Shown here: positions 14,306 to 41,467 of the stretch, piece by piece
Layout: every line of letters starts with the position of its first letter
How positions within the stretch are numbered: position 1 is the stretch's first letter
Origin: Escherichia phage vB_EcoM_G37-3
Sequence record: MK327941.1
Strand: one strand, 5' to 3'
Length of the DNA stretch: 64,000 bases
Notes under the pieces: generated by a model
Told to the model about the DNA's origin: nothing
The model's database searches: none
The model's input: the letters and a program-made list of their open reading frames with translations, nothing else
Translations under genes and position numbers: made by a program

Positions 14306-16009
14306 ATGCGCAAGGAAGCGGAAGAAAACCCGATTGATAAACTTAACAAATTAGATAAACTTGATTCTATTGATAATTTGCAAGCCGCTACCGAATTGGT
14401 GGCGGAGACAGTGGAACAAAAATCTAATGAAGTTGTTGGTGCGGTAGAGGATAACACCGCAGCCAATGAATTGACGGCAGAAAATACACAATCTACCGCT
14501 GGCAATACCCAAAAAACTTATGAAGAATTGCAAAAACTCAATAATTTCTCTTCTCAGATGAATGAGAAATTACGTGGTTTTGGTGTTATGATGGAACGTA
14601 GATTTGGTGTTGTCAGTAAAATGGCTAGCGGTATTGGTGCGATTGAAGAAGCATTGAAAAAACCGGAACAACCGCAAACAATGCCATCACCTCAGCCAGT
14701 TTTGCCTACTGTGCCGGAACAGCCTAATAATGACAACTATCAAGGTCTTCCAAAGAAAAAACCAGATGTTGAGGAACGGAAGAAAAAGAACGCCACAGAT
14801 AAGCGTAATGCAGATTCTATGGAAAATCTTCTTAAAGTTGTTCGTGGAGGATTTAAAGAAACCATAGGTATCTCTAATAAGGTCTTAGGGATGTTATTTA
14901 AGATCACTTTGACCGCTATGGCAGAAGCCGCAAAATGGGGTGCTATTTTGATGGGTATTGTTTTTGTCATTGATACCCTGATGGTTCATTTCAGATATTG
15001 GAGCGATTTATTCGAGACAAAGTTCAGTGAATTTATGGATAAGGCCGGAGAATGGGCTGGTCCTATTAGCGATATTTTAACTACTGTTCGTCAGGTTCGA
15101 GATTATTGGTCTAAAGGCGAATATGGGGAGTTAATTAAATCTCTTGTTATGGGTATTGGTGATGCATTCTATAAAACCTTTATCCAACTTGATCGAATTA
15201 TCACTACTGGTATTGCTAAAATTCTTCGCATGATCCCTGGTATGGGTGATTATGCCGATAAGTTAGAATATGGTGCTTTAAAATCTGCTGTCGCTCAAGG
15301 CTATACGCCAAATGAAAGAGAACTCGAATTAATGGATAAGATCGAGTCTGAACACGAAGAAGACAAATATGGAGAGCGCACAGGATGGACAGGAAAAGCC
15401 CGTGATATTGGCGAAGCTATTGGGGATTCTATTAAGGATAAAGTTAACGAAGGTCTTGTTAGTCTGGGCTGGAGAGATCAAAAGGATGTTGACGCAGAGA
15501 AACGACAAGAAGAATTAAAACGCGGGGAATATAAGTCTGTTTCTGCTGAACAACGATCTGCTAGTCGTAAACTTAGAATTAAAAGCGAGGGCGCGATCAA
15601 TAATATTAATGAAGTTATGGAGAATTTGAGCGGTGACTATGACAAAGAAAGAATGGGAGAGTTGAAAAAGGATATTGATGTTTACCGTGAGCAAGTTCAA
15701 GATCCTACATTAGTTGAAAGTGATCGTTCTCAGTTAGAGCGTCTTATTGAAAAATTTGATGAGATGTATGCTGATAAAACTAAGGGTGTGGTTCCAACTA
15801 ATCCTGTTCCTGCAACTGAAACGGAAACAGCAAAACAAGCGGAACGTACTGAACAAATGCAGAAACAAGCTGCAATCCAGCAACAAACGACAAATCAGAC
15901 CTCAAACGTAAATAATACACAAATTGTAACAAACAATAGAACTATTAAACAGGGTGCACCAACAACTAGAATTGATGCTCCCGGTACAATTAATATGGGG
16001 AACTTTTAA
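14306..16009 (+). CDS. 29: Baseplate hub / tail length determinator gp29
   Basis: 567 aa; synteny; start uncertain (coupled ATG at 14278 is in another frame). Confidence 0.75.
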   Translation: MRKEAEENPIDKLNKLDKLDSIDNLQAATELVAETVEQKSNEVVGAVEDNTAANELTAENTQSTAGNTQKTYEELQKLNNFSSQMNEKLRGFGVMMERRFGVVSKMASGIGAIEEALKKPEQPQTMPSPQPVLPTVPEQPNNDNYQGLPKKKPDVEERKKKNATDKRNADSMENLLKVVRGGFKETIGISNKVLGMLFKITLTAMAEAAKWGAILMGIVFVIDTLMVHFRYWSDLFETKFSEFMDKAGEWAGPISDILTTVRQVRDYWSKGEYGELIKSLVMGIGDAFYKTFIQLDRIITTGIAKILRMIPGMGDYADKLEYGALKSAVAQGYTPNERELELMDKIESEHEEDKYGERTGWTGKARDIGEAIGDSIKDKVNEGLVSLGWRDQKDVDAEKRQEELKRGEYKSVSAEQRSASRKLRIKSEGAINNINEVMENLSGDYDKERMGELKKDIDVYREQVQDPTLVESDRSQLERLIEKFDEMYADKTKGVVPTNPVPATETETAKQAERTEQMQKQAAIQQQTTNQTSNVNNTQIVTNNRTIKQGAPTTRIDAPGTINMGNF

Positions 16010-17067
16010 TGAAAATTAGTGTTATCAATGATGCCGTTGATAGCTTTAAAGCGGGGGTTAAAACCTCCGCTGGTTTTACCTCAAAAAATAAAGGGAAAAC
16101 ATTAACCGCTCAATTCCCCGCTGAACGTGCTAGCGGTAATGATGCTAGCGGTTATTATATCAACGACTTATATAATAATGGTCTGTTATTCACTGCATAC
16201 GATTATACATCTCGTACTACTGGTTCGTTGCGTGATTTCAGGAAAAAGAAAAATGTTGCTAGCGGTTTTGGCGGTAGCGTTAATATCGCTGGTTTTGATT
16301 TAAATTTGGGTGGGAGAAATGCTGCATTTGACCGAGAGGCAATTGCTAATATTCTTCTTCCTCGTAGTCAATCTGACGTTGACGCTGCTAGCCATAAGTT
16401 TAATGATGTTGGTGAATCTGTTATTTCTCGCGGTGGTGGTACTTTAGGCGGTGCTCTTTCTAATATGGCATCTACTGCCGTTTTTGGCGGTATCGAAAGT
16501 ATTACTGGTGGATACCTTGCCGATCACGGTGAGCAGATTTATAATACTGCGCGAAGTATGTATGCTGGTGCTGACGCACGAACTAAAAACTACGTATGGC
16601 ATCTAACCCCACGTAGTATTGAAGACCTTCGCAATATTCTGATCATATACGAAACGTTTTTAGAATTGTCTTATGGTTCTAGTGGTATTTCCAGCACCGC
16701 AAAAGAATTAAAAGCGGAAGTTGATGCGTGGTATAAAAATACACTATTGAGAAAATCCACCCCAGAGGAAGCGAAGAGAAATGATACTCTGTTTGAAGGG
16801 ATCACCGATTTTCTATCAAACGTAATTACTGTATCTAACCCGACAATATGGATGATCTCTAACTTCGGCAAGCGTACATCGTTTGAAGGGCGTAGCGATG
16901 CATTTGGTCCCGCTCAGATCTCAAGTGTACGTCTGGACAAGTCGCCTGATGGTAAGTTTAATGGCCTTGCTATTTCTCCTAACTTGCCGAGTACCTTTGT
17001 TCTGGAAGTATCATTTAGAGAGATCTTGACACTTTCCCGTGGTACTATATTTGGGAGTGCGGCATAA
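16009..17067 (+). CDS. 48: Baseplate tail-tube junction protein gp48
   Basis: 352 aa; synteny and size; ATGA overlap with gp29. Confidence 0.75.
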   Translation: MKISVINDAVDSFKAGVKTSAGFTSKNKGKTLTAQFPAERASGNDASGYYINDLYNNGLLFTAYDYTSRTTGSLRDFRKKKNVASGFGGSVNIAGFDLNLGGRNAAFDREAIANILLPRSQSDVDAASHKFNDVGESVISRGGGTLGGALSNMASTAVFGGIESITGGYLADHGEQIYNTARSMYAGADARTKNYVWHLTPRSIEDLRNILIIYETFLELSYGSSGISSTAKELKAEVDAWYKNTLLRKSTPEEAKRNDTLFEGITDFLSNVITVSNPTIWMISNFGKRTSFEGRSDAFGPAQISSVRLDKSPDGKFNGLAISPNLPSTFVLEVSFREILTLSRGTIFGSAA

Positions 17068-17999
17068 TGTTTGATTTAAATGATTTTAACGAACAAGCCG
17101 CTAACCTTGACTTTCAGCGATCTAACTTATTCAGCGTGGCATTTGCCACCACTCCAAGTAATAAGACACAAGCGATCCTAGAAAGTATGGGTGGTGCGGT
17201 ATATGATATTATACCAAATGCATTAAATGACTATTTCGGGATTACTCGTGGTGATTATACTGACGCATTAACAAATCTTGCTGTACAGGGTGTTAGGCGT
17301 GCTGTTGATTCATCTGGTGTCAAAAAGTATCTTTTAGGTGCAATGTCATCCCGCGTAGTTCAATCTCTTCTGGGGCAATTTGATGTTGGTACATATGCGC
17401 TTGACTGGTTCAATATGGCATATAAGACAAGCGGTCTTCTGGTGTATGCTGTTAAGGTTCCAGAAAACAGATTGAATTATGAAATGGACCGTAACCACAA
17501 TGCGCCAAACATTCGAATTACCGGACGTGATTTTGATCCGCTTGTATTGAGCTTTAGAATGGACTCTAGCGCATCAAACTATAGAGCAATGCAGGATTGG
17601 GTTAACTCAGTAGAAGACCCCGTTACAGGGCTTCGTGCGCTTCCTGTTGACGTTGAAGCAGATATTCAGGTTAACTTACATAACCGAATGGGAGTTCCTC
17701 ACACGATCATGATGTTTAATGGTTGTGTTCCTGTTGGTGTGAGTGCACCGGAATTAACCTATGAAAATAACAACGAAATTACAACATTCGATGTTACTTT
17801 TGCGTATAGGACTATGCAAACTGGTGCTGTAGGAGAGCAAGCCGCGCGAGAATGGATTGAGGATAAGGCAATAAACGCAATAACAAACACTTTCGGTAAT
17901 AATTTACTTGATAGTGGGTTATCTGCTGCTGGTAATGCTTTATCGCGTCTAAATGGCGTTGGTGGGCGTGTGGTGAATACTGTCACTAACTGGTTCTGA
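17067..17999 (+). CDS. 54: Baseplate tail-tube initiator gp54
   Basis: 310 aa; synteny and size; ATGA overlap with gp48. Confidence 0.75.
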   Translation: MFDLNDFNEQAANLDFQRSNLFSVAFATTPSNKTQAILESMGGAVYDIIPNALNDYFGITRGDYTDALTNLAVQGVRRAVDSSGVKKYLLGAMSSRVVQSLLGQFDVGTYALDWFNMAYKTSGLLVYAVKVPENRLNYEMDRNHNAPNIRITGRDFDPLVLSFRMDSSASNYRAMQDWVNSVEDPVTGLRALPVDVEADIQVNLHNRMGVPHTIMMFNGCVPVGVSAPELTYENNNEITTFDVTFAYRTMQTGAVGEQAAREWIEDKAINAITNTFGNNLLDSGLSAAGNALSRLNGVGGRVVNTVTNWF

Positions 18000-18008
18000 T
18001 AAACGAAA

Positions 18009-18033
18009 GGCGGGGATTATCCCCGCCTTTTTA
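18009..18033. terminator. Bidirectional rho-independent terminator
   Basis: GGCGGGGATTATCCCCGCC flanked by AAACGAAA and TTTTTA. Confidence 0.65.
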
Positions 18034-18543
18034 TTTGATTAAATCATCACATTGTTTGCGTAGTTTATAGCGATACTGTTTTGATTGTAGCAATTGAAGT
18101 TTTTCATAATCCCCTTCCTCATATGCAGCCGAAAGATCATCTTGATATGCTGCTTCCGTCCCGATTACACATACTCCAAATTTTCTACGACGGTCGGCAT
18201 CTTCCATTGCTTTGCGATTCATTTCTTCAATTGAATTTTCATGACCATAATAATATTCGTAAATGCGTTTCTTCTCTGCTTCTTTATCTGCCTTAATCTT
18301 TGCGATCTGTTCTGCTGATTCCGGTTGACGACCTAAACGCTGTAATGAGGCGTCTTTCTTTTCAAGGTAGTCAATCACGCAATCTTCAACGCTATTAAAT
18401 GGAAAACGTGACTCTTTCTGCCATCGTTCACATGACCGTACAAACTCGTGTGTATTCTTAGATGCAAGTGCCAGATCATGCACAGCGCACCCATTAAGCA
18501 TAGCCACTAAAGCCGCAAGACCAATCAGTTTAATCATTTTCAT
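18031..18543 (-). CDS. Putative lipoprotein
   Basis: N-terminal signal peptide with lipobox LNGC (MKMIKLIGLAALVAMLNGC). Confidence 0.55.
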   Translation of the reverse strand: MKMIKLIGLAALVAMLNGCAVHDLALASKNTHEFVRSCERWQKESRFPFNSVEDCVIDYLEKKDASLQRLGRQPESAEQIAKIKADKEAEKKRIYEYYYGHENSIEEMNRKAMEDADRRRKFGVCVIGTEAAYQDDLSAAYEEGDYEKLQLLQSKQYRYKLRKQCDDLIK

Positions 18544-19364
18544 TTAGTCACCTCACCGAAAATTGTAAATTGTCTACGATTCTCATCGCCGAAAGATTCT
18601 ACTACGTCGTTTACCTTGACGCAAGTCCCGCGCGGTAAAATTACTTCACATTCGCAAGGGTTCCATGCAATTGACCCAACAACAAAACCTTTATGATCTT
18701 TTACGTCAATTACCCATGATACATTACAAGAATGTTGCATCTTTCCGGTCATTGATTCATATCGATTCTCACAATAAAGGCTAGTGCTGTTTGATAGCCA
18801 TCCTCCAAAGATGATTGGTGTCATGCTGGTAGATACAAAGTTTTTAAAGGTAAACTCCTTATCTTCAATGATACGCTCTATTGTCTGAATGTCAAGATGT
18901 TGACCGCGATAAAGAGTACCGTTTAACTTTTCGGTTTTATCCATGACGCAATCCATCAAATCGACAATCTCTGATATCTCATCGGTCATGTCTTCTTCCC
19001 CTAAGAGAGCACCATTTACCCATTCGTATTGTTCAGACACATAATCACAGATTGCATTATATTCTGCTGGGGTTATGTTGTTATGTTTGTAATGTTTGAA
19101 TACATTATCTCCAAAGTCTTCGGAGTGTACTTCATACATCACATTAATGATTTTCTTGACAAATCCATAATCTTGTGTCTCACGCTCAAGGAAGCGGATA
19201 ACCTTCACATAATCATCAAAGTTAATCTGATCGCTAATCATCTCAGTGATCATGTAACCATTAATCCCCTCAATGTCATATGTTTCAATATAATTGTCCA
19301 TACGTTCCATCATTGATTCGCGTGATTCTTCCGAAAGACGAAAATCCTGTAATTTCTTGAACAT
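18540..19364 (-). CDS. ADP-ribosyltransferase (Mod/Alt-like)
   Basis: R-S-E triad context: TLYRGQ, FVSTS, CECEVILP; own early-type promoter upstream. Confidence 0.65.
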   Translation of the reverse strand: MFKKLQDFRLSEESRESMMERMDNYIETYDIEGINGYMITEMISDQINFDDYVKVIRFLERETQDYGFVKKIINVMYEVHSEDFGDNVFKHYKHNNITPAEYNAICDYVSEQYEWVNGALLGEEDMTDEISEIVDLMDCVMDKTEKLNGTLYRGQHLDIQTIERIIEDKEFTFKNFVSTSMTPIIFGGWLSNSTSLYCENRYESMTGKMQHSCNVSWVIDVKDHKGFVVGSIAWNPCECEVILPRGTCVKVNDVVESFGDENRRQFTIFGEVTK

Positions 19365-19385
19365 TTTAAACCTCCCATATAACAG

Positions 19386-19418
19386 AAAACGGGGCTAGTA
19401 TAAAACTAGTCCCCGTTT
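19386..19418 (-). terminator. Hairpin terminator after alt, overlapping the downstream early promoter
   Basis: CGGGGCTAGTATAAAACTAGTCCCCG inverted repeat flanked by A/T runs. Confidence 0.45.
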
Positions 19419-19425
19419 GAGTCAA
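19397..19425 (-). promoter_or_regulatory. Early sigma70-type promoter with stem-loop (PeSL-like)
   Basis: Minus strand TTGACT-N17-TATACT; hairpin overlaps spacer; RBS GGGAGG follows. Confidence 0.55.
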
Positions 19426-19442
19426 CCATTATTTCTTAAAAA

Positions 19443-21494
19443 TTACATTTTAAATTTATCTGGCATTGCGTCTACAGATACCAGATCAGCGATAAGCTGA
19501 CGTAGAGTTGCCTTATCTGCTTTCTTACGTTCGGTTTTAGCTTCGCTAATGAAGCTGGAGAAAGACAGGTCAGAAGCAGGTTTAACAACACCTTCACGGA
19601 TGAATGCATCGCCGTCCGCGATCATCTCGCCAGATTCTTGTAATGCTGCCAGTTCATTTTTGTTCATAATATGTGCCTCAATGTAATAAGTTTCTTGTGA
19701 ATCCGTCGATGCCGTAGCACGAGTTACCGTATCAAAGGATAACACAACACCGCGAGGAAGTAAAATCTCGCATTCTTTGTAAGCAAATGCTTTGTTACCT
19801 ACTGGCAAGACAGGGATGTTTTCCGCGCCAGCAATGGAGAAAGCAACATTAGCGCCACCTTCACCGCGAGAGCCAGCCATAGAATCAACACCAGCAACGG
19901 CACTAGCCACGTTTGCATTCCAGCCGCCAAAAATGTTAGGTGCAAGGGAAGTGCTCACATAGTTTTTAAAGTAAAACGCTTTTTGCTTACGTGCAGTTTC
20001 CCACATTTGCGACCGGAAGTCCATACCACGATACAGAATAGTACCAGGATCAAGTTTAACGCCATAGTTAGAGAAGGCATTATCCAGTGCATCGCACATC
20101 TTGACCAATTCTTCTGGATCTGCGATTCCCTCAAACTCTTCCAGCTTACGGTCGGTTAGGAAGTTGTTCATATTGATGTATGCTGCATCGGCATATTCGC
20201 TCAACACAAAACCTTCCGCGCCTGGTAGATCAAGATCAATATCTGCCATCATTTCACCCATGTTGCTAGCAATTGCTTCAAACATACCGGAAGCAACATT
20301 ACGTAGGGCATCGGTTTTAATCTGGGTGATATGACTACGCAGCATTTCAGCTTTTACATCTGCTGGCATAGACTGGTCTACTCGATCCATTGCCAGGGCG
20401 GTGATCTTGTTTTCGAATACTTCCTCGCTCATGATTTCTTTTAAGCGTTTGATTGATGCTGCGATAACTTCCGCAGACAATGGATCATATTGATCCTGAA
20501 CTTTTACCAGTTCGCTTACTGCGTATTTTGCATCGGCTTCGCTTTCAAAAATAGTACGCATGAAACCATAGCGAGTGATAATATCACTTGTCCAGTCATT
20601 CAGAGAACGGGCGGTTGAACGTTCTAAGGCTTGACGATCAATCAGAGTATTAAACTGTTTCTTAGGTTCGGCTTCGGTGATATCTTCTTCCGGTTTAAGA
20701 TTAATTTTTTCTGGATGATTCACATAGTCGCTGTTATAGGTCGCTTGAGTTTTCAGCATTTCTTCTTTAGTCAAACGAGATTTAGCCGCTACGCGTTGTT
20801 CCGCTTCCGCGTTTCGTTCTTCTTCTGACACCAGACTAGCCGCATACGCCTCATCTTTAGTCAGAGATTCACCAGTAGCCTTAGATACCCAGCGATCACC
20901 TAAATCACTTTCTACTTTAGTGAACAAGGAATCATCAAGTTTAATCCCTTTAATCTTATCAATCGCCATACCGCGACGCTTGACAACAACTAAAGCGATC
21001 TTTTTGCTGGTCATTACTTCCTGCTGGAATACTTCAAACTTCGGTGTACGACGCACCAAACGCTCTATAACGCGCTTAACCAGTTCGGTCTTACCTTTCA
21101 TGCGGGATACGTTAAAACGGAACATAACAGCGTCTAATTGCGCTTTACGGGCTGTTTCCATAACCACATCAAAAGCACTTGCCATAACTGCAATCGGGTT
21201 ATCGCCTAGACCATTTTTAAGCTGTACAATACGACCGCTTTTGTTCATTTCGCACAGTACAACATGCGCTGTCTTGTCACCCATACGAATGATTTTAGGT
21301 GTTTTGTTGGTGAAGTTACAAAGACGGACAATCACATCTTTATCGCGTGTCTGTACTGCAAAAAGCTGTTTAGGATTCTGCTTAGGCTTTAAGCACTGTA
21401 CCGGAGCAATACTACCAAAGTTTTCTTCCTCTTCCGTCAACAGCCATTTCTCGAAAGATTCAATCATTAGGTCGTCGATTTCTAAGTTAAACAT
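19443..21494 (-). CDS. alt: Alt ADP-ribosyltransferase (packaged)
   Basis: 683 aa (T4 Alt 682 aa); C-terminal ILYRGMDF, YVSTS, ECEILLPRG. Confidence 0.8.
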   Translation of the reverse strand: MFNLEIDDLMIESFEKWLLTEEEENFGSIAPVQCLKPKQNPKQLFAVQTRDKDVIVRLCNFTNKTPKIIRMGDKTAHVVLCEMNKSGRIVQLKNGLGDNPIAVMASAFDVVMETARKAQLDAVMFRFNVSRMKGKTELVKRVIERLVRRTPKFEVFQQEVMTSKKIALVVVKRRGMAIDKIKGIKLDDSLFTKVESDLGDRWVSKATGESLTKDEAYAASLVSEEERNAEAEQRVAAKSRLTKEEMLKTQATYNSDYVNHPEKINLKPEEDITEAEPKKQFNTLIDRQALERSTARSLNDWTSDIITRYGFMRTIFESEADAKYAVSELVKVQDQYDPLSAEVIAASIKRLKEIMSEEVFENKITALAMDRVDQSMPADVKAEMLRSHITQIKTDALRNVASGMFEAIASNMGEMMADIDLDLPGAEGFVLSEYADAAYINMNNFLTDRKLEEFEGIADPEELVKMCDALDNAFSNYGVKLDPGTILYRGMDFRSQMWETARKQKAFYFKNYVSTSLAPNIFGGWNANVASAVAGVDSMAGSRGEGGANVAFSIAGAENIPVLPVGNKAFAYKECEILLPRGVVLSFDTVTRATASTDSQETYYIEAHIMNKNELAALQESGEMIADGDAFIREGVVKPASDLSFSSFISEAKTERKKADKATLRQLIADLVSVDAMPDKFKM

Positions 21495-21534
21495 TTTATA
21501 TCCTCTAGTTGATAACCTATAAACCTATATTTAT

Positions 21535-21563
21535 GAAAACGGGGCTTAACGCCCCCTTTTTAT
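21535..21563. terminator. Hairpin terminator
   Basis: GGGGCTTAACGCCCC hairpin with flanking T/A runs. Confidence 0.45.
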
Positions 21564-21775
21564 TATAATGCACCATCGAGCAATTGCTCTAAGGTGTATC
21601 CTGAATAGTCTTTTTCAATCAGGATATATTTTCCTACTCGTTTAATACAACCGCGCATTTCAACATATTCTGCGTAGTTGATGGTGCGAGTTGTTCCATC
21701 TTCTAGCAAAGCAGTACCGATTTCGTTAATGCGGTCATAAGTTACGTAGGTAATGATGATTTCGATGTTAGCCAT
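21563..21775 (-). CDS. Small hypothetical early protein
   Basis: Start at ATG 21775 (MANIEII...) with AAGGAG RBS downstream of promoter 21810-21838. Confidence 0.55.
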   Translation of the reverse strand: MANIEIIITYVTYDRINEIGTALLEDGTTRTINYAEYVEMRGCIKRVGKYILIEKDYSGYTLEQLLDGAL

Positions 21776-21809
21776 TTGATACTCCTTAGTAGTTCGTTTC
21801 GGTATGTGT

Positions 21810-21838
21810 ATTATAGGGGATCGATGATCCCCTGTCAA
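21810..21838 (-). promoter_or_regulatory. Early promoter with palindromic spacer (PeSL-type)
   Basis: Minus strand TTGACA-GGGGATCATCGATCCCC-TATAAT, A-tract upstream. Confidence 0.7.
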
Positions 21839-21846
21839 CAACTTTT

Positions 21847-22365
21847 TTAGTTATTTTTTAATTGCTCATCTTGCAATAGGGCAATCACATGCTGGCGATG
21901 TTCTTCCGATTGAGGCACACCGAAAAAGTTTGTTTTGTAGAAATACTCTAATCGGTCTTCTCGTGTGCTCTCTTCCATCATGATCGCGGGTAGTCCGAGA
22001 TTTCGGAAACGTCGCTTTTCTGCTGGCGTAAAATCACTGTAATACAACATAGAATCATCATTACCAGCAATGCTAAACTCATCTTTCATAAAGGAGAATA
22101 TTGCGTTTAAACGCTGTTTACCGTCCACGATTTCGATCTCATAGCGAGAGCCATCATCAATCTTAGCCATTGCGATAGCACCAACCGGAAAATCATTAAT
22201 CAGGTTTTCGATAAACATACGTTTGTTTTCGGTGTCCCATACCAAAGGACGCTGATAATCTGGGTTCATGTTGATATATCCATCTTCTAACCACGCCTCA
22301 TAAACAGAGATGACAAAGTTTTTAGTATTGGTATAGTAACGGCGTTTAGGCGTTAAACGGTTCAT
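21847..22365 (-). CDS. DUF262 / ParB-like nuclease-domain protein
   Basis: DYQRPLVWDTENK...VDGKQRLNAI resembles the DUF262 (GmrSD N-terminal) DGQQR motif; start ATG 22365 with CAGGAGA RBS. Confidence 0.5.
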   Translation of the reverse strand: MNRLTPKRRYYTNTKNFVISVYEAWLEDGYINMNPDYQRPLVWDTENKRMFIENLINDFPVGAIAMAKIDDGSRYEIEIVDGKQRLNAIFSFMKDEFSIAGNDDSMLYYSDFTPAEKRRFRNLGLPAIMMEESTREDRLEYFYKTNFFGVPQSEEHRQHVIALLQDEQLKNN

Positions 22366-22366
22366 G

Positions 22367-22699
22367 TTATAGTCTCCTGAATGGATCATCACGTAAATCA
22401 ATATCTTTTAAGAACTCATCCCATGAATGGCGGATATTGTTCTTAATTCTCCAGATAAGCGCAGGGATTGAACGCTCTCCCATCTGGAAGTATGGATCAT
22501 ATGATCCGTATGCCCAATATGCTACTACAATTCCACAATCAGAGCAATAGTATTCTATTTCACTTGCTGGCGACCAAAGTCCATCAATATGATCGGTGAT
22601 CTTGCTTTCGATGTTATGGCTATGACAATCAGGGCAACGGATGCAATGACCTTGTTTATCGTAATTTGACGTTAGCGAATACTTAAACAATCTCATCAT
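22367..22699 (-). CDS. Zinc-finger protein (hypothetical)
   Basis: CIRCPDCHSH...CSDC, two CxxC pairs. Confidence 0.5.
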   Translation of the reverse strand: MMRLFKYSLTSNYDKQGHCIRCPDCHSHNIESKITDHIDGLWSPASEIEYYCSDCGIVVAYWAYGSYDPYFQMGERSIPALIWRIKNNIRHSWDEFLKDIDLRDDPFRRL

Positions 22700-23412
22700 A
22701 GATCCTTATTGGCTTCAAATACTGCCTTTGCGAATCCTCGCGGGGTAAGTGACCTTATAGTCTTTGTTTTCGTTCCTTTCCCGCCTAGCTTAGAATGCTG
22801 TTTACTGTACCCTTTATTAATCTGCAAAGGTTTCTTTTCTGGCATCATAAAGCCTTGTCCGGTCCATAAGCAAGTCTTTTTCGGGTACATATCACGGGCG
22901 GCAATATACTCAGGAAACGTAGGATGCTTATCATCTTCCGGCAAATAACCGCCATATTCCCACGGATGAAACATATAATCAGGCTTACGCCACATGCTAG
23001 AGATAACGCTTACAGGATTCTCTATCATGTAGGGAACTCCTAGCCATTCACCCAAATAAGCGGTTATTTTAGCTGCCCGTACATCATGAACTTGAATCAA
23101 TGGTCCTTGTTCTCGTTTCTTTCGTTCAAAGTGCGCAGCGCCACTAACAGCTAAATTGGTGCACGGTGGGAATGCAAAGATAATATCCGGTTTCCCCCAT
23201 TCAAGGTCCATTGCTCTTTCCAGCCAGTTCAAATCAATCCATGTGTTTACATAGGTAATGTTTGGATGTTCAAATCTGGTATTATACTTTTTGTATGTGC
23301 CGTGGTCGCCATCATCAGCATTAAAGCAGATCACCTTATGACCTGCTTTAGCCCATTCTAGCCCCATTATCCCCGATCCGTCAAAGTTACAGAATATTAA
23401 TTTTTGTTTCAT
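22696..23412 (-). CDS. C5-cytosine methyltransferase-like protein (catalytic core only)
   Basis: Motif I-like FCNFDGSG, motif IV-like FPPCTNLAVSGA, motif VI-like MIENP; no evident target-recognition domain. Confidence 0.45.
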   Translation of the reverse strand: MKQKLIFCNFDGSGIMGLEWAKAGHKVICFNADDGDHGTYKKYNTRFEHPNITYVNTWIDLNWLERAMDLEWGKPDIIFAFPPCTNLAVSGAAHFERKKREQGPLIQVHDVRAAKITAYLGEWLGVPYMIENPVSVISSMWRKPDYMFHPWEYGGYLPEDDKHPTFPEYIAARDMYPKKTCLWTGQGFMMPEKKPLQINKGYSKQHSKLGGKGTKTKTIRSLTPRGFAKAVFEANKDL

Positions 23413-24186: not shown

Positions 24187-24215
24187 ATTATAGGGGATCT
24201 CCCGATCCCCGTCAA
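24187..24215 (-). promoter_or_regulatory. Early promoter with palindromic spacer (PeSL-type)
   Basis: Minus strand TTGACG-GGGATCGGGAGATCCCC-TATAAT. Confidence 0.6.
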
Positions 24216-27447: not shown

Positions 27448-27476
27448 AGTATAGGGGATCACCGATCCCCTGTCAA
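27448..27476 (-). promoter_or_regulatory. Early promoter with palindromic spacer (PeSL-type)
   Basis: Minus strand TTGACA-GGGGATCGGTGATCCCC-TATACT. Confidence 0.65.
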
Positions 27477-29207: not shown

Positions 29208-29236
29208 AGTATAGGGGATACGTGATCCCCTGTCAA
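29208..29236 (-). promoter_or_regulatory. Early promoter with palindromic spacer (PeSL-type)
   Basis: Minus strand TTGACA-GGGGATCACGTATCCCC-TATACT. Confidence 0.65.
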
Positions 29237-34283: not shown

Positions 34284-35161
34284 TAAAATTCTCCGTAGTT
34301 AACCTGAAAACATTCTACACCAATTGAGCGGTACATGTCAACCACTTGATCGCGGTCATCTACCGCCAAAACAACATGATAACGCGGTGCAATTTCAGAG
34401 AAGAAGATCTCTTTCTTCACTTCATGATCAGGACGACGATCATTAGTTTCACGTTGAAAGTGATCACTAGGTTCAATACCCTGTTCACGCAGCCATTGCA
34501 GAGTATCTTCTTCGCAAACATCCTCACGCCCTGAGCATGTAATGATACGATAGCCATTATCACGATACAGTTTAAGCATTTCGATCACTTGCGGACGAGG
34601 TTTATCTTCTTTGACCTTTGTCCAGTCAAACGGATGACGACCGCCCTTATCCGCTAATGTCCCATCAATATCAAAGATCACTGCCTTTGGCAGCATGGTA
34701 TTCGGTTTGTATACTTCTTGACCCATATATTCCTGCATCAGATAAAATTGGTTACGCAAATGAGAAAGTGGAATTGCTTTCTCGCCGCGATAGAAATTAC
34801 GTTTCTTTAGTGTCTCAAATGATTCATTGAACACTTGTTCAGTATACACCGCGTTAAATTCTTTTGCAAGTTCTTTGTAGAATACACGATGTTTTTCTTT
34901 CAGGTTGGTATCGGAGATAATGATACTCAATCCGCGTGATAGAGTCTCACGAGCAATCATTCTCTGAATAGACTCTACCAGTTTTTCTTTTTCCTTAGTA
35001 TACTTGTATTTCAAATGTGAGTCAACACCAAACAACATAAGACGAAGATCATCGCGATTCACATTACGATAATTACTAAACCGTTTACACGTTTCCATAG
35101 CCCATGTAGTTTTACCGGACCCAGAACAACCAACGGTTAAAATCACTTCACATTTCGGCAT
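34283..35161 (-). CDS. pseT: Polynucleotide 5-kinase / 3-phosphatase
   Basis: P-loop GCSGSGKTT, HAD-like DIDGTL; start at ATG 35161 (MPKCEVIL) with ATGA overlap. Confidence 0.85.
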   Translation of the reverse strand: MPKCEVILTVGCSGSGKTTWAMETCKRFSNYRNVNRDDLRLMLFGVDSHLKYKYTKEKEKLVESIQRMIARETLSRGLSIIISDTNLKEKHRVFYKELAKEFNAVYTEQVFNESFETLKKRNFYRGEKAIPLSHLRNQFYLMQEYMGQEVYKPNTMLPKAVIFDIDGTLADKGGRHPFDWTKVKEDKPRPQVIEMLKLYRDNGYRIITCSGREDVCEEDTLQWLREQGIEPSDHFQRETNDRRPDHEVKKEIFFSEIAPRYHVVLAVDDRDQVVDMYRSIGVECFQVNYGEF

Positions 35162-41438: not shown

Positions 41439-41467
41439 ATTATAGCGGGGATTTCTCCCCGCGTCAA
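41439..41467 (-). promoter_or_regulatory. Early promoter with palindromic spacer (PeSL-type)
   Basis: Minus strand TTGACG-CGGGGAGAAATCCCCGC-TATAAT. Confidence 0.65.

Follow-up and report, generated by a model that had tools for sequence, protein, structure and literature searches.

The subject of this analysis is the alt locus of Escherichia phage vB_EcoM_G37-3 (sequence record MK327941.1), which occupies positions 18,031 to 21,494 of a 64,000-nucleotide stretch of DNA, called the window below. We think it probable that the three genes of this locus, all on the early strand, are organized in two separately expressed units. The first would be a late-type alt gene, coding for a full-length Alt ADP-ribosyltransferase (ART); the second would be driven by a promoter-early stem-loop (PeSL) cassette and would consist of the gene of a second, shorter enzyme, named here ART2, and of a lipoprotein gene translationally coupled to it. 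The three open reading frames (ORFs), first pointed out in a preliminary description of this DNA made from its letters alone, are all present on the minus strand, and are given below with the signals that accompany them.

19443-21494, minus strand: alt, 683 amino acids, from the ORF list.
19389-19425, minus strand: PeSL-type terminator/promoter cassette between alt and ART2, from a motif and fold scan.
18540-19364, minus strand: ART2 (the 274-amino-acid ADP-ribosyltransferase; equivalent to RB49p183), from the ORF list.
18031-18543, minus strand: lipoprotein-like gene, 170 amino acids, from the ORF list.
18005-18031: bidirectional terminator hairpin of 12 bp (7 GC), between the lipoprotein gene (minus strand) and gene 54 (plus strand).
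21541-21555, minus strand: terminator-like hairpin upstream of alt, read from the sequence, GGGGCGTTAAGCCCC then GTTTTC.
21528-21535, minus strand: late-promoter-like octamer CATAAATA, read from the sequence.

The phage to which this alt locus belongs is a T4-like coliphage of the RB49 type (Krischvirus). A megablast search found 58 phage records matching the interval at 95% identity or more, all from the genus Krischvirus, which here comprises RB49-like coliphages and phages of Shigella. The minus-strand trio converges with gene 54, which ends at 17999 on the plus strand; the plus-strand late genes at 14306-17999 are homologues of those for T4 gp29, gp48 and gp54. RB49 itself (NC_005066.1) has the same three genes, in unchanged order, and apart from the lipoprotein body the two loci have a DNA identity of about 98.5%; the genes are labelled in RB49 as alt (RB49p184), ‘ADP-ribosyltransferase, similar to C-terminal part of T4 Alt’ (RB49p183) and hypothetical protein (RB49p182). 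The two phages differ in their lipoprotein allele, of 161 amino acids with LTGC in RB49 and of 170 amino acids with LNGC in the window, at 33% identity. The hairpin at 18005-18031 is annotated as a terminator in phage TB34, and equivalent hairpins lie 3′ of the lipoprotein gene in contigs L016, L013, L015 and L007. A scan of positions 17000-22500 against Rfam matched no family. This is an ordinary locus: for RB49 and related phages, existing annotations or publications cover its genes, the paralogy of the two enzymes and the promoter/terminator cassette; what is added here is the conservation of the module in six lineages, the covariation in the stem of the cassette and the sharp bounding of the exchanged part of the lipoprotein gene.

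The element that parts the two units is the cassette between alt and ART2. The preliminary description had proposed an early-type promoter, TTGACT-N17-TATACT, upstream of the 274-amino-acid gene, and this promoter is indeed found at 19425-19397 on the minus strand (-35 hexamer TTGACT at 19425-19420, -10 hexamer TATACT at 19402-19397), followed by the Shine-Dalgarno sequence of ART2, GGGAGG, at 19376-19371. It belongs to an enriched class: the pattern TTGACN18TATANT occurs ten times in the window, always on the minus strand, against 0.31 occurrences expected (about 30-fold enrichment), and these sites constitute the early promoter class of the phage. The same description had placed a hairpin within the promoter. 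A hairpin is there (19416-19389, 10-bp stem, -20.9 kcal/mol, z = -2.6, then TTTTCT), but it is not confined to the spacer: it extends past it, so that the -10 hexamer falls within its loop and 3′ arm. In five of the ten sites, a palindrome of G-tract and C-tract fills the spacer, GGGGATC...GATCCCC in four cases and GCGGGGA...TCCCCGC in one; these PeSL promoters are located, on the minus strand, at 21810-21838, 24187-24215, 27448-27476, 29208-29236 and 41439-41467. The spacer palindrome is absent from the ART2 site (19397), where the hairpin lies on the -10 hexamer, and from the sites at 34997, 50074, 51537 and 55757.

Cassettes of this kind have been described in phages RB49 and phi1 under the name of PeSLs (Arbiol et al. 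2010, PMC2839356; Comeau et al. 2014, PMC4122927). Their stem-loop is mostly located between the two hexamers or overlaps the -10 hexamer and, as established with lacZ fusions on PeSLs other than the present one, they are strong promoters as well as terminators (PMC2839356). The ART2 cassette presents the features that define them, i.e. an intergenic sigma-70 consensus on the early strand, preceded by AT-rich DNA and followed by a Shine-Dalgarno sequence, and a stable stem-loop made of a G-tract and a C-tract; judged by its sequence, it is a PeSL of the subclass overlapping the -10 box. There is no difference of substance from the published PeSLs, except that the ART2 copy is situated at the edge of the core late-gene block and has stayed unusually constant, even among lineages with proteins as little as 44% identical. 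The sequence of the cassette thus suggests early expression of ART2 from its own promoter.

The extent of this conservation was evaluated by comparing the window with contigs representing five further ART2 lineages (83, 63, 48, 45 and 44% identity in ART2). Every contig long enough shows the same order: alt, cassette, ART2, a homologue of the lipoprotein gene, a hairpin and a convergent gp54-like gene. Within the cassette, TTGAC(A/T), the 17-nucleotide spacer and TATACT are invariant. The 10-bp stem is paired in 98% of the cells, compared to 38-52% in slid controls, and two of its pairs are changed on both sides (C-G, U-A or A-U for one, U-A or C-G for the other). The start of the lipoprotein gene overlaps the stop of ART2 or is 1 nucleotide away from it in the relatives; in the window, the overlap is the 4-nucleotide ATGA at 18540-18543.

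The first unit corresponds to what is known in T4. The 683-amino-acid protein, already identified as Alt in the preliminary description, is by sequence comparison a full-length orthologue of T4 Alt: it matches the latter over residues 31-681 in BLASTP (E = 7e-61) and, over residues 16-683, PHROG 802, ‘Alt-like RNA polymerase ADP-ribosyltransferase’ (E = 6e-180). Its score with PF03496 (ADPrib_exo_Tox), 37.2 bits, is above the gathering cut-off of 23.4 bits that was applied to both enzymes, and its catalytic residues (R489, S514-T-S516 and E574-C-E576) make up the R/STS/ExE motifs also present in T4 Alt. The synteny is that of T4 as well, since alt adjoins the convergent genes 54/48/29 and occupies the same genomic place, with the early region on one side and convergent gene 54 on the other.

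The likeness extends to the region upstream of alt. A hairpin exists at the homologous position in T4, RB49 and the distant contig L007, and a terminator upstream of alt is kept in five of six T4-like genomes (Nolan et al. 2006, PMC1524935). In the window, the hairpin at 21541-21555 would end the early transcript begun at the PeSL promoter 21838-21810. After it comes CATAAATA, which has one mismatch to the T4 late consensus TATAAATA and is located 33 nucleotides before the ATG of alt. In T4, a terminator hairpin is likewise followed by the canonical late promoter TATAAATA, about 33 nucleotides before the ATG, i.e. at an equal distance; phage ime09 has the canonical TATAAATA after a hairpin at the homologous place, and contig L007 carries AATAAATA at this place. 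Comparison of the upstream regions also showed similarity in the leader of alt and in its Shine-Dalgarno region. The octamer CATAAATA is, therefore, positionally homologous to the late promoter of T4 alt, and by analogy it would function as one; on the same positional homology, together with established knowledge of T4, Alt would be expressed late and packaged. The preliminary description had proposed a late packaged enzyme plus an early-expressed paralogue. This division appears plausible by analogy, because alt is preceded by a terminator and then CATAAATA where T4 alt is preceded by a terminator and then TATAAATA, and because a terminator-promoter cassette parts alt from its paralogue. We also noted that, in the leader of alt (21495-21527, minus strand), GGTTATCAAC is kept in the window and in contig L007 despite an Alt identity of only 46%, and that T4 shares the CACTAGAG..GGATAT Shine-Dalgarno region of this leader, which may be a translational control site.

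As to the second unit, ART2 scores even higher than Alt with PF03496 (59.3 bits) and carries the same signature: R153 (18908-18906), S178-T-S180 (18833-18825) and E238-C-E240 (18653-18645). The presence of two R-S-E ADP-ribosyltransferases in tandem, as first described, is thus borne out by profile and motifs alike. The R, STS and ExE residues are invariant in an alignment of eight sequences (ART2 and seven homologues, 24-83% identity), and the profile built from this alignment matches the solved structures of BECa, Vip2, C3, iota Ia and SpvB. An AlphaFold (AF2) model of ART2, with a predicted local distance difference test (pLDDT) score of 78.9 and a predicted template modelling (pTM) score of 0.75, led Foldseek to Vis, C3bot2, Certhrax, iota Ia and CDTa, with probability 1.0 and E of about 1e-10. 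As judged from the model, ART2 is a genuine ART with a C3/Vis/iota-type fold. The preliminary description had made its case depend on an ART fold and on a conserved catalytic glutamate in this protein; since the fold is predicted and the glutamates are conserved, its case holds on both counts. Fold and R/STS/ExE signature are shared with the C2/C3-like toxins of PF03496 (Vis, C3bot, iota Ia, CDTa, Vip2 and BECa), but identity to these is only 13-20%, and ART2 is a phage intracellular enzyme without translocation components, with an extra N-terminal helical region that it has in common with Alt. The protein is 100% identical to that of RB49 and at least 97% identical in all 58 Krischvirus records.

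The relatives of ART2 are found in the Alt family. In BLASTP, it matches residues 413-593 of T4 Alt (E = 1e-22) and the neighbouring Alt of its own genome (E = 4e-16). Its residues 8-268 align to positions 330-602 of the PHROG 802 profile, which means that ART2 corresponds to an Alt without its first ∼330 residues and without its C-terminal tail; it is composed of a helical N-terminal (pre-catalytic) region and the catalytic domain. The missing tail ends Alt as ...MPDKFKM, and a ...MP.KF.. tail is retained in the shortened Alt-like proteins P0007 and P0008. When the catalytic domains were compared in a neighbour-joining tree, all six lineages of ART2 grouped in a single clade, separate from every Alt clade, and ART2 is about 28-32% identical to any Alt catalytic domain, that of the adjacent Alt included. 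Between the window and contig L007, identity is 46% for Alt and 44% for ART2. Because ART2 forms a separate clade and the two enzymes have diverged in parallel, the duplication that gave rise to them would be old.

Tandem paralogues of alt are common at this place, a theme shared with T4 and ime09. In T4, the annotation of alt.-1/alt.-2 describes a duplication of the beginning of alt that has decayed; in Tequatrovirus ime09, both tandem copies are full length. Nolan et al. (2006, PMC1524935) listed RB49ORF183c and 44RRORF188c, along with T4 alt.-1/alt.-2, among the paralogues that arose by duplication of alt. However, the second copy is an N-terminal remnant in T4, whereas ART2 keeps only the C-terminal catalytic part; the second copy of ime09 is complete and directly adjoins alt, with no promoter between them, whereas ART2 has its own early promoter/terminator cassette. 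In both T4 and ime09, the second copy abuts alt and has no promoter of its own. By uncoupling alt and ART2, the RB49-type cassette thus fits the idea of a late packaged enzyme accompanied by an early paralogue.

The third gene codes for a protein starting with MKMIKLIGLAALVAMLNGC and having the form MKMIKLIGLAALVAMLNG-C19-A, i.e. a signal peptide over residues 1-18, a lipobox LNG-C19 and an alanine at +2; for the window allele, n-region, h-region and lipobox read MKMIK-LIGLAALVAM-LNG-C. The asparagine at -2 places LNGC outside strict lipobox patterns. At the aligned position, all the other alleles bar one (LFGC, in contig L015) and all the remote homologues have [LM]TGC-A, LTGC being found in most alleles. 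A lipobox-bearing protein directly downstream of ART2 had been announced in the preliminary description: the lipobox stands at the level of the family and the start of the gene does overlap the stop of ART2, but the LNGC sequence on which the claim was based is atypical. Homologues are labelled ‘Lipoprotein’ (KFS-EC) or ‘putative lipoprotein’ (W115). According to the +2 rule of E. coli, an alanine at +2 predicts sorting by the Lol system to the outer membrane and, from its sequence, the 170-amino-acid protein is a probable outer-membrane lipoprotein. The allele classes are 94 to 29% identical, with the signal peptide, G18-C19 and four cysteines (38, 55, 125 and 165) invariant; the four invariant cysteines fit a periplasmic protein. 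The structural model is all-helical (pLDDT 81, pTM 0.47).

Searches with the lipoprotein brought little beyond its own family. It had no match in Pfam and only sub-threshold ones in NCBIfam (TimA, 17.7 bits for a cut-off of 200; a generic lipoprotein signal model, 12.9 bits for a cut-off of 50); Foldseek found nothing below E = 1 in the PDB, and only the family itself was found in BFVD. An exhaustive profile search of 1.8 billion representatives returned nine clusters only, of small phage-type lipoproteins, each with a lipobox at the aligned position, plus one artefactual repeat protein. The latter, P0020 (489 amino acids), is a weak match made of five identical tandem repeats of about 98 amino acids and has no lipobox; its appearance is less that of a relative than that of a misassembly or of reading through a circular contig. 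Two candidate identities were rejected. That of a spanin was discarded on the sequence alone, since a C-terminal transmembrane segment is missing and o-spanins are much shorter and less helical; that of a homologue of T4 alt.-3 was discarded for lack of any similarity.

Taken together, these data make the following course of events the probable one. In the first unit, alt would be made late, by homology with T4, from the (T/C/A)ATAAATA promoter situated just after the upstream terminator; Alt would then go into the head, enter the host together with the injected DNA and ADP-ribosylate host proteins on arginine, as can be inferred from T4. At the border of the second unit, the cassette hairpin and its U-run would terminate the alt transcript, and the -35 and -10 hexamers would act on the DNA as a strong sigma-70 early promoter. 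Transcripts initiated at the cassette would not be terminated, because the 5′ arm of the hairpin is missing from them, and would read on through ART2. The latter is most likely a cytoplasmic, early-expressed, arginine-specific mono-ADP-ribosyltransferase serving host takeover, i.e. a functional analogue of a Mod enzyme, unrelated to it by descent. The lipoprotein would be produced by translational coupling to ART2 and would be small, helical, disulfide-containing and probably sorted to the outer membrane; its mature part is swapped as a cassette from one nearly identical phage to another.

A number of points weigh against this scheme. The terminator of the cassette may be leaky, with ART2 being also made late. 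The covariation sample is small (five distinct sequences), and 13 of 500 shuffles reach the observed score. Taken alone, CATAAATA is weak evidence of a late promoter, and the minus strand has no exact TATAAATA, the seven exact copies in the window being all on the plus strand before late genes. The LNGC lipobox of the window allele is atypical and, in Pfam, NCBIfam, the PDB, BFVD and the profile search, there was no fold or family match hinting at a function of the lipoprotein. Finally, our literature search found no experiments on a Krischvirus ADP-ribosyltransferase and only one genomics/transduction paper; the searched literature holds no expression, proteomic or enzymatic data for any Krischvirus, and no experimental characterisation of any of the three proteins in this lineage.

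A more specific view, possible but doubtful in our opinion, is that ART2 and the lipoprotein constitute an early operon forming a dedicated module for host takeover and exclusion. ART2, derived from Alt, would have been recruited to the early cytoplasmic role of ModA in a genus with only one mod gene, perhaps with new targets of its own. The lipoprotein would be a hypervariable determinant of superinfection exclusion or receptor masking, its mature part being exchanged by recombination in the interval from the invariant signal-peptide stretch to the bidirectional terminator, much as cassettes are exchanged at the internal-protein locus of T4.

DNA identity to RB49 falls to 20-49% within ∼18040-18500, the body of the lipoprotein gene, and is 98-100% on both sides; this confined drop indicates that the mature part is exchanged as a cassette, delimited by the stretch coding for the signal peptide at one end and by the bidirectional terminator at the other. 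There are at least three allele classes, those of the window (170 amino acids, LNGC), of Whisky (169 amino acids, about 47%) and of RB49 (161 amino acids, about 33%), and the window allele is present in only 5 of the 58 records, e.g. 011D4, E26 and PHB13. Swapping of the mature part between nearly identical phages would fit a role at the level of the envelope, and hints weakly at functions such as superinfection exclusion or receptor masking.

Another possibility, which we regard as rather unlikely, is that ART2 is a second packaged and injected enzyme, made late by read-through from the late promoter of alt, in which case the early promoter would play an added or lesser part. Leakiness is frequent among intrinsic terminators and, in T4 and ime09, the second alt copy begins 3 nucleotides after alt, is promoterless and is hence co-transcribed with it. 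Moreover, residues 10-12 of ART2 are L-S-E, which we take to resemble the sites of the T4 prohead protease. But L-x-E is common by chance in glutamate-rich N-termini, and its placement is inconsistent among the homologues. In addition, ART2 lacks the N-terminal ∼330 residues of Alt as well as the C-terminal tail, which even the shortened P0007 and P0008 retain, and the strict conservation of the terminator/promoter cassette over six lineages argues for uncoupled expression.

That ART2 and the lipoprotein are a single functional pair, of the toxin/immunity or effector/partner type, is still less probable. The idea is prompted by the strict gene order and translational coupling in six lineages, and by the fact that ART toxins often have adjacent immunity genes; two PDB matches, 8za7 and 6dre, are such pairs. 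However, the lipoprotein, with its export signal and lipobox, would be in a different compartment from ART2, which has no signal, and the near-invariance of ART2 beside lipoprotein alleles swapped at 29-50% identity is unexpected for co-evolving partners.

The term ‘Mod-like’, used for the 274-amino-acid protein in the preliminary description, raises the question of orthology between ART2 and T4 ModA or ModB. These are small, early-expressed R-S-E mono-ADP-ribosyltransferases that complement injected Alt; ART2 is short too, essentially a catalytic domain, with an early-type promoter, and RB49 has a single mod gene, against the tandem pair modA and modB of T4. We nevertheless hold orthology to be very improbable. 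With BLASTP, the only match of ART2 to ModA had E = 4.0 and there was none to ModB (against 1e-22 for T4 Alt), and its PHROG matches are all Alt-like, with no Mod PHROG among them; of the comparison with Alt, ModA and ModB that had been proposed, the relation to Alt is confirmed and the one to ModA and ModB is not. Furthermore, ART2 adjoins alt and gene 54, whereas the position of Mod in T4, beside srd, is held in RB49 by RB49p014 (NC_005066.1, 8917-9420), a 167-amino-acid homologue of ModB (E = 1e-9) and ModA (E = 2e-5). The assignment of ART2 to the Mod family was ruled out on these two grounds, the BLASTP comparisons and the presence of RB49p014 at the place of Mod. ART2 differs from T4 ModA and ModB in having no detectable sequence relation to them and in occupying another locus; since RB49 carries a true Mod homologue beside srd, ‘Mod-like’ holds, on sequence grounds, as an analogy and not as a family assignment.

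Lastly, although T4 has decayed remnants at the same place (alt.-1/alt.-2) and ART2 covers only part of Alt, there is hardly any likelihood that ART2 is a similar functionless remnant of an alt duplication, given an ORF that is intact and at least 97% identical in 58 genomes, homologues of 272-288 amino acids down to 44% identity with all catalytic residues invariant, a conserved promoter and Shine-Dalgarno sequence of its own, and a confident fold model.

Three neighbouring genes on the minus strand deserve mention. At 21847-22401, a 184-amino-acid protein (RB49p187, hypothetical in RB49) has a GmrSD_N domain (DUF262, ParB-like; PF03235, E = 5e-20, with a DGKQR motif) and no more than this, the C-terminal nuclease domain of GmrSD being absent; it could be a phage decoy or regulator. 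The 238-amino-acid protein at 22696-23412 is annotated as a DNA methyltransferase in RB49 and as a C-5 cytosine methylase in TB34, and had no Pfam match at E ≤ 0.01. The adjacent 110-amino-acid protein at 22367-22699 has a weak zinc-ribbon match, below the cut-off.

Three ARTs in total are thus found in Krischvirus as in T4, but a repertoire of this size would have been reached by different routes: Alt, ModA and ModB in T4; Alt, a short paralogue derived from Alt and a single Mod in Krischvirus. The locus also indicates that a PeSL cassette can outlast its flanking genes in conservation, with compensatory changes in its stem. Lastly, a lipoprotein with such sharp borders of exchange, beside an almost invariant enzyme, becomes a candidate factor in phage-phage or phage-envelope interaction.

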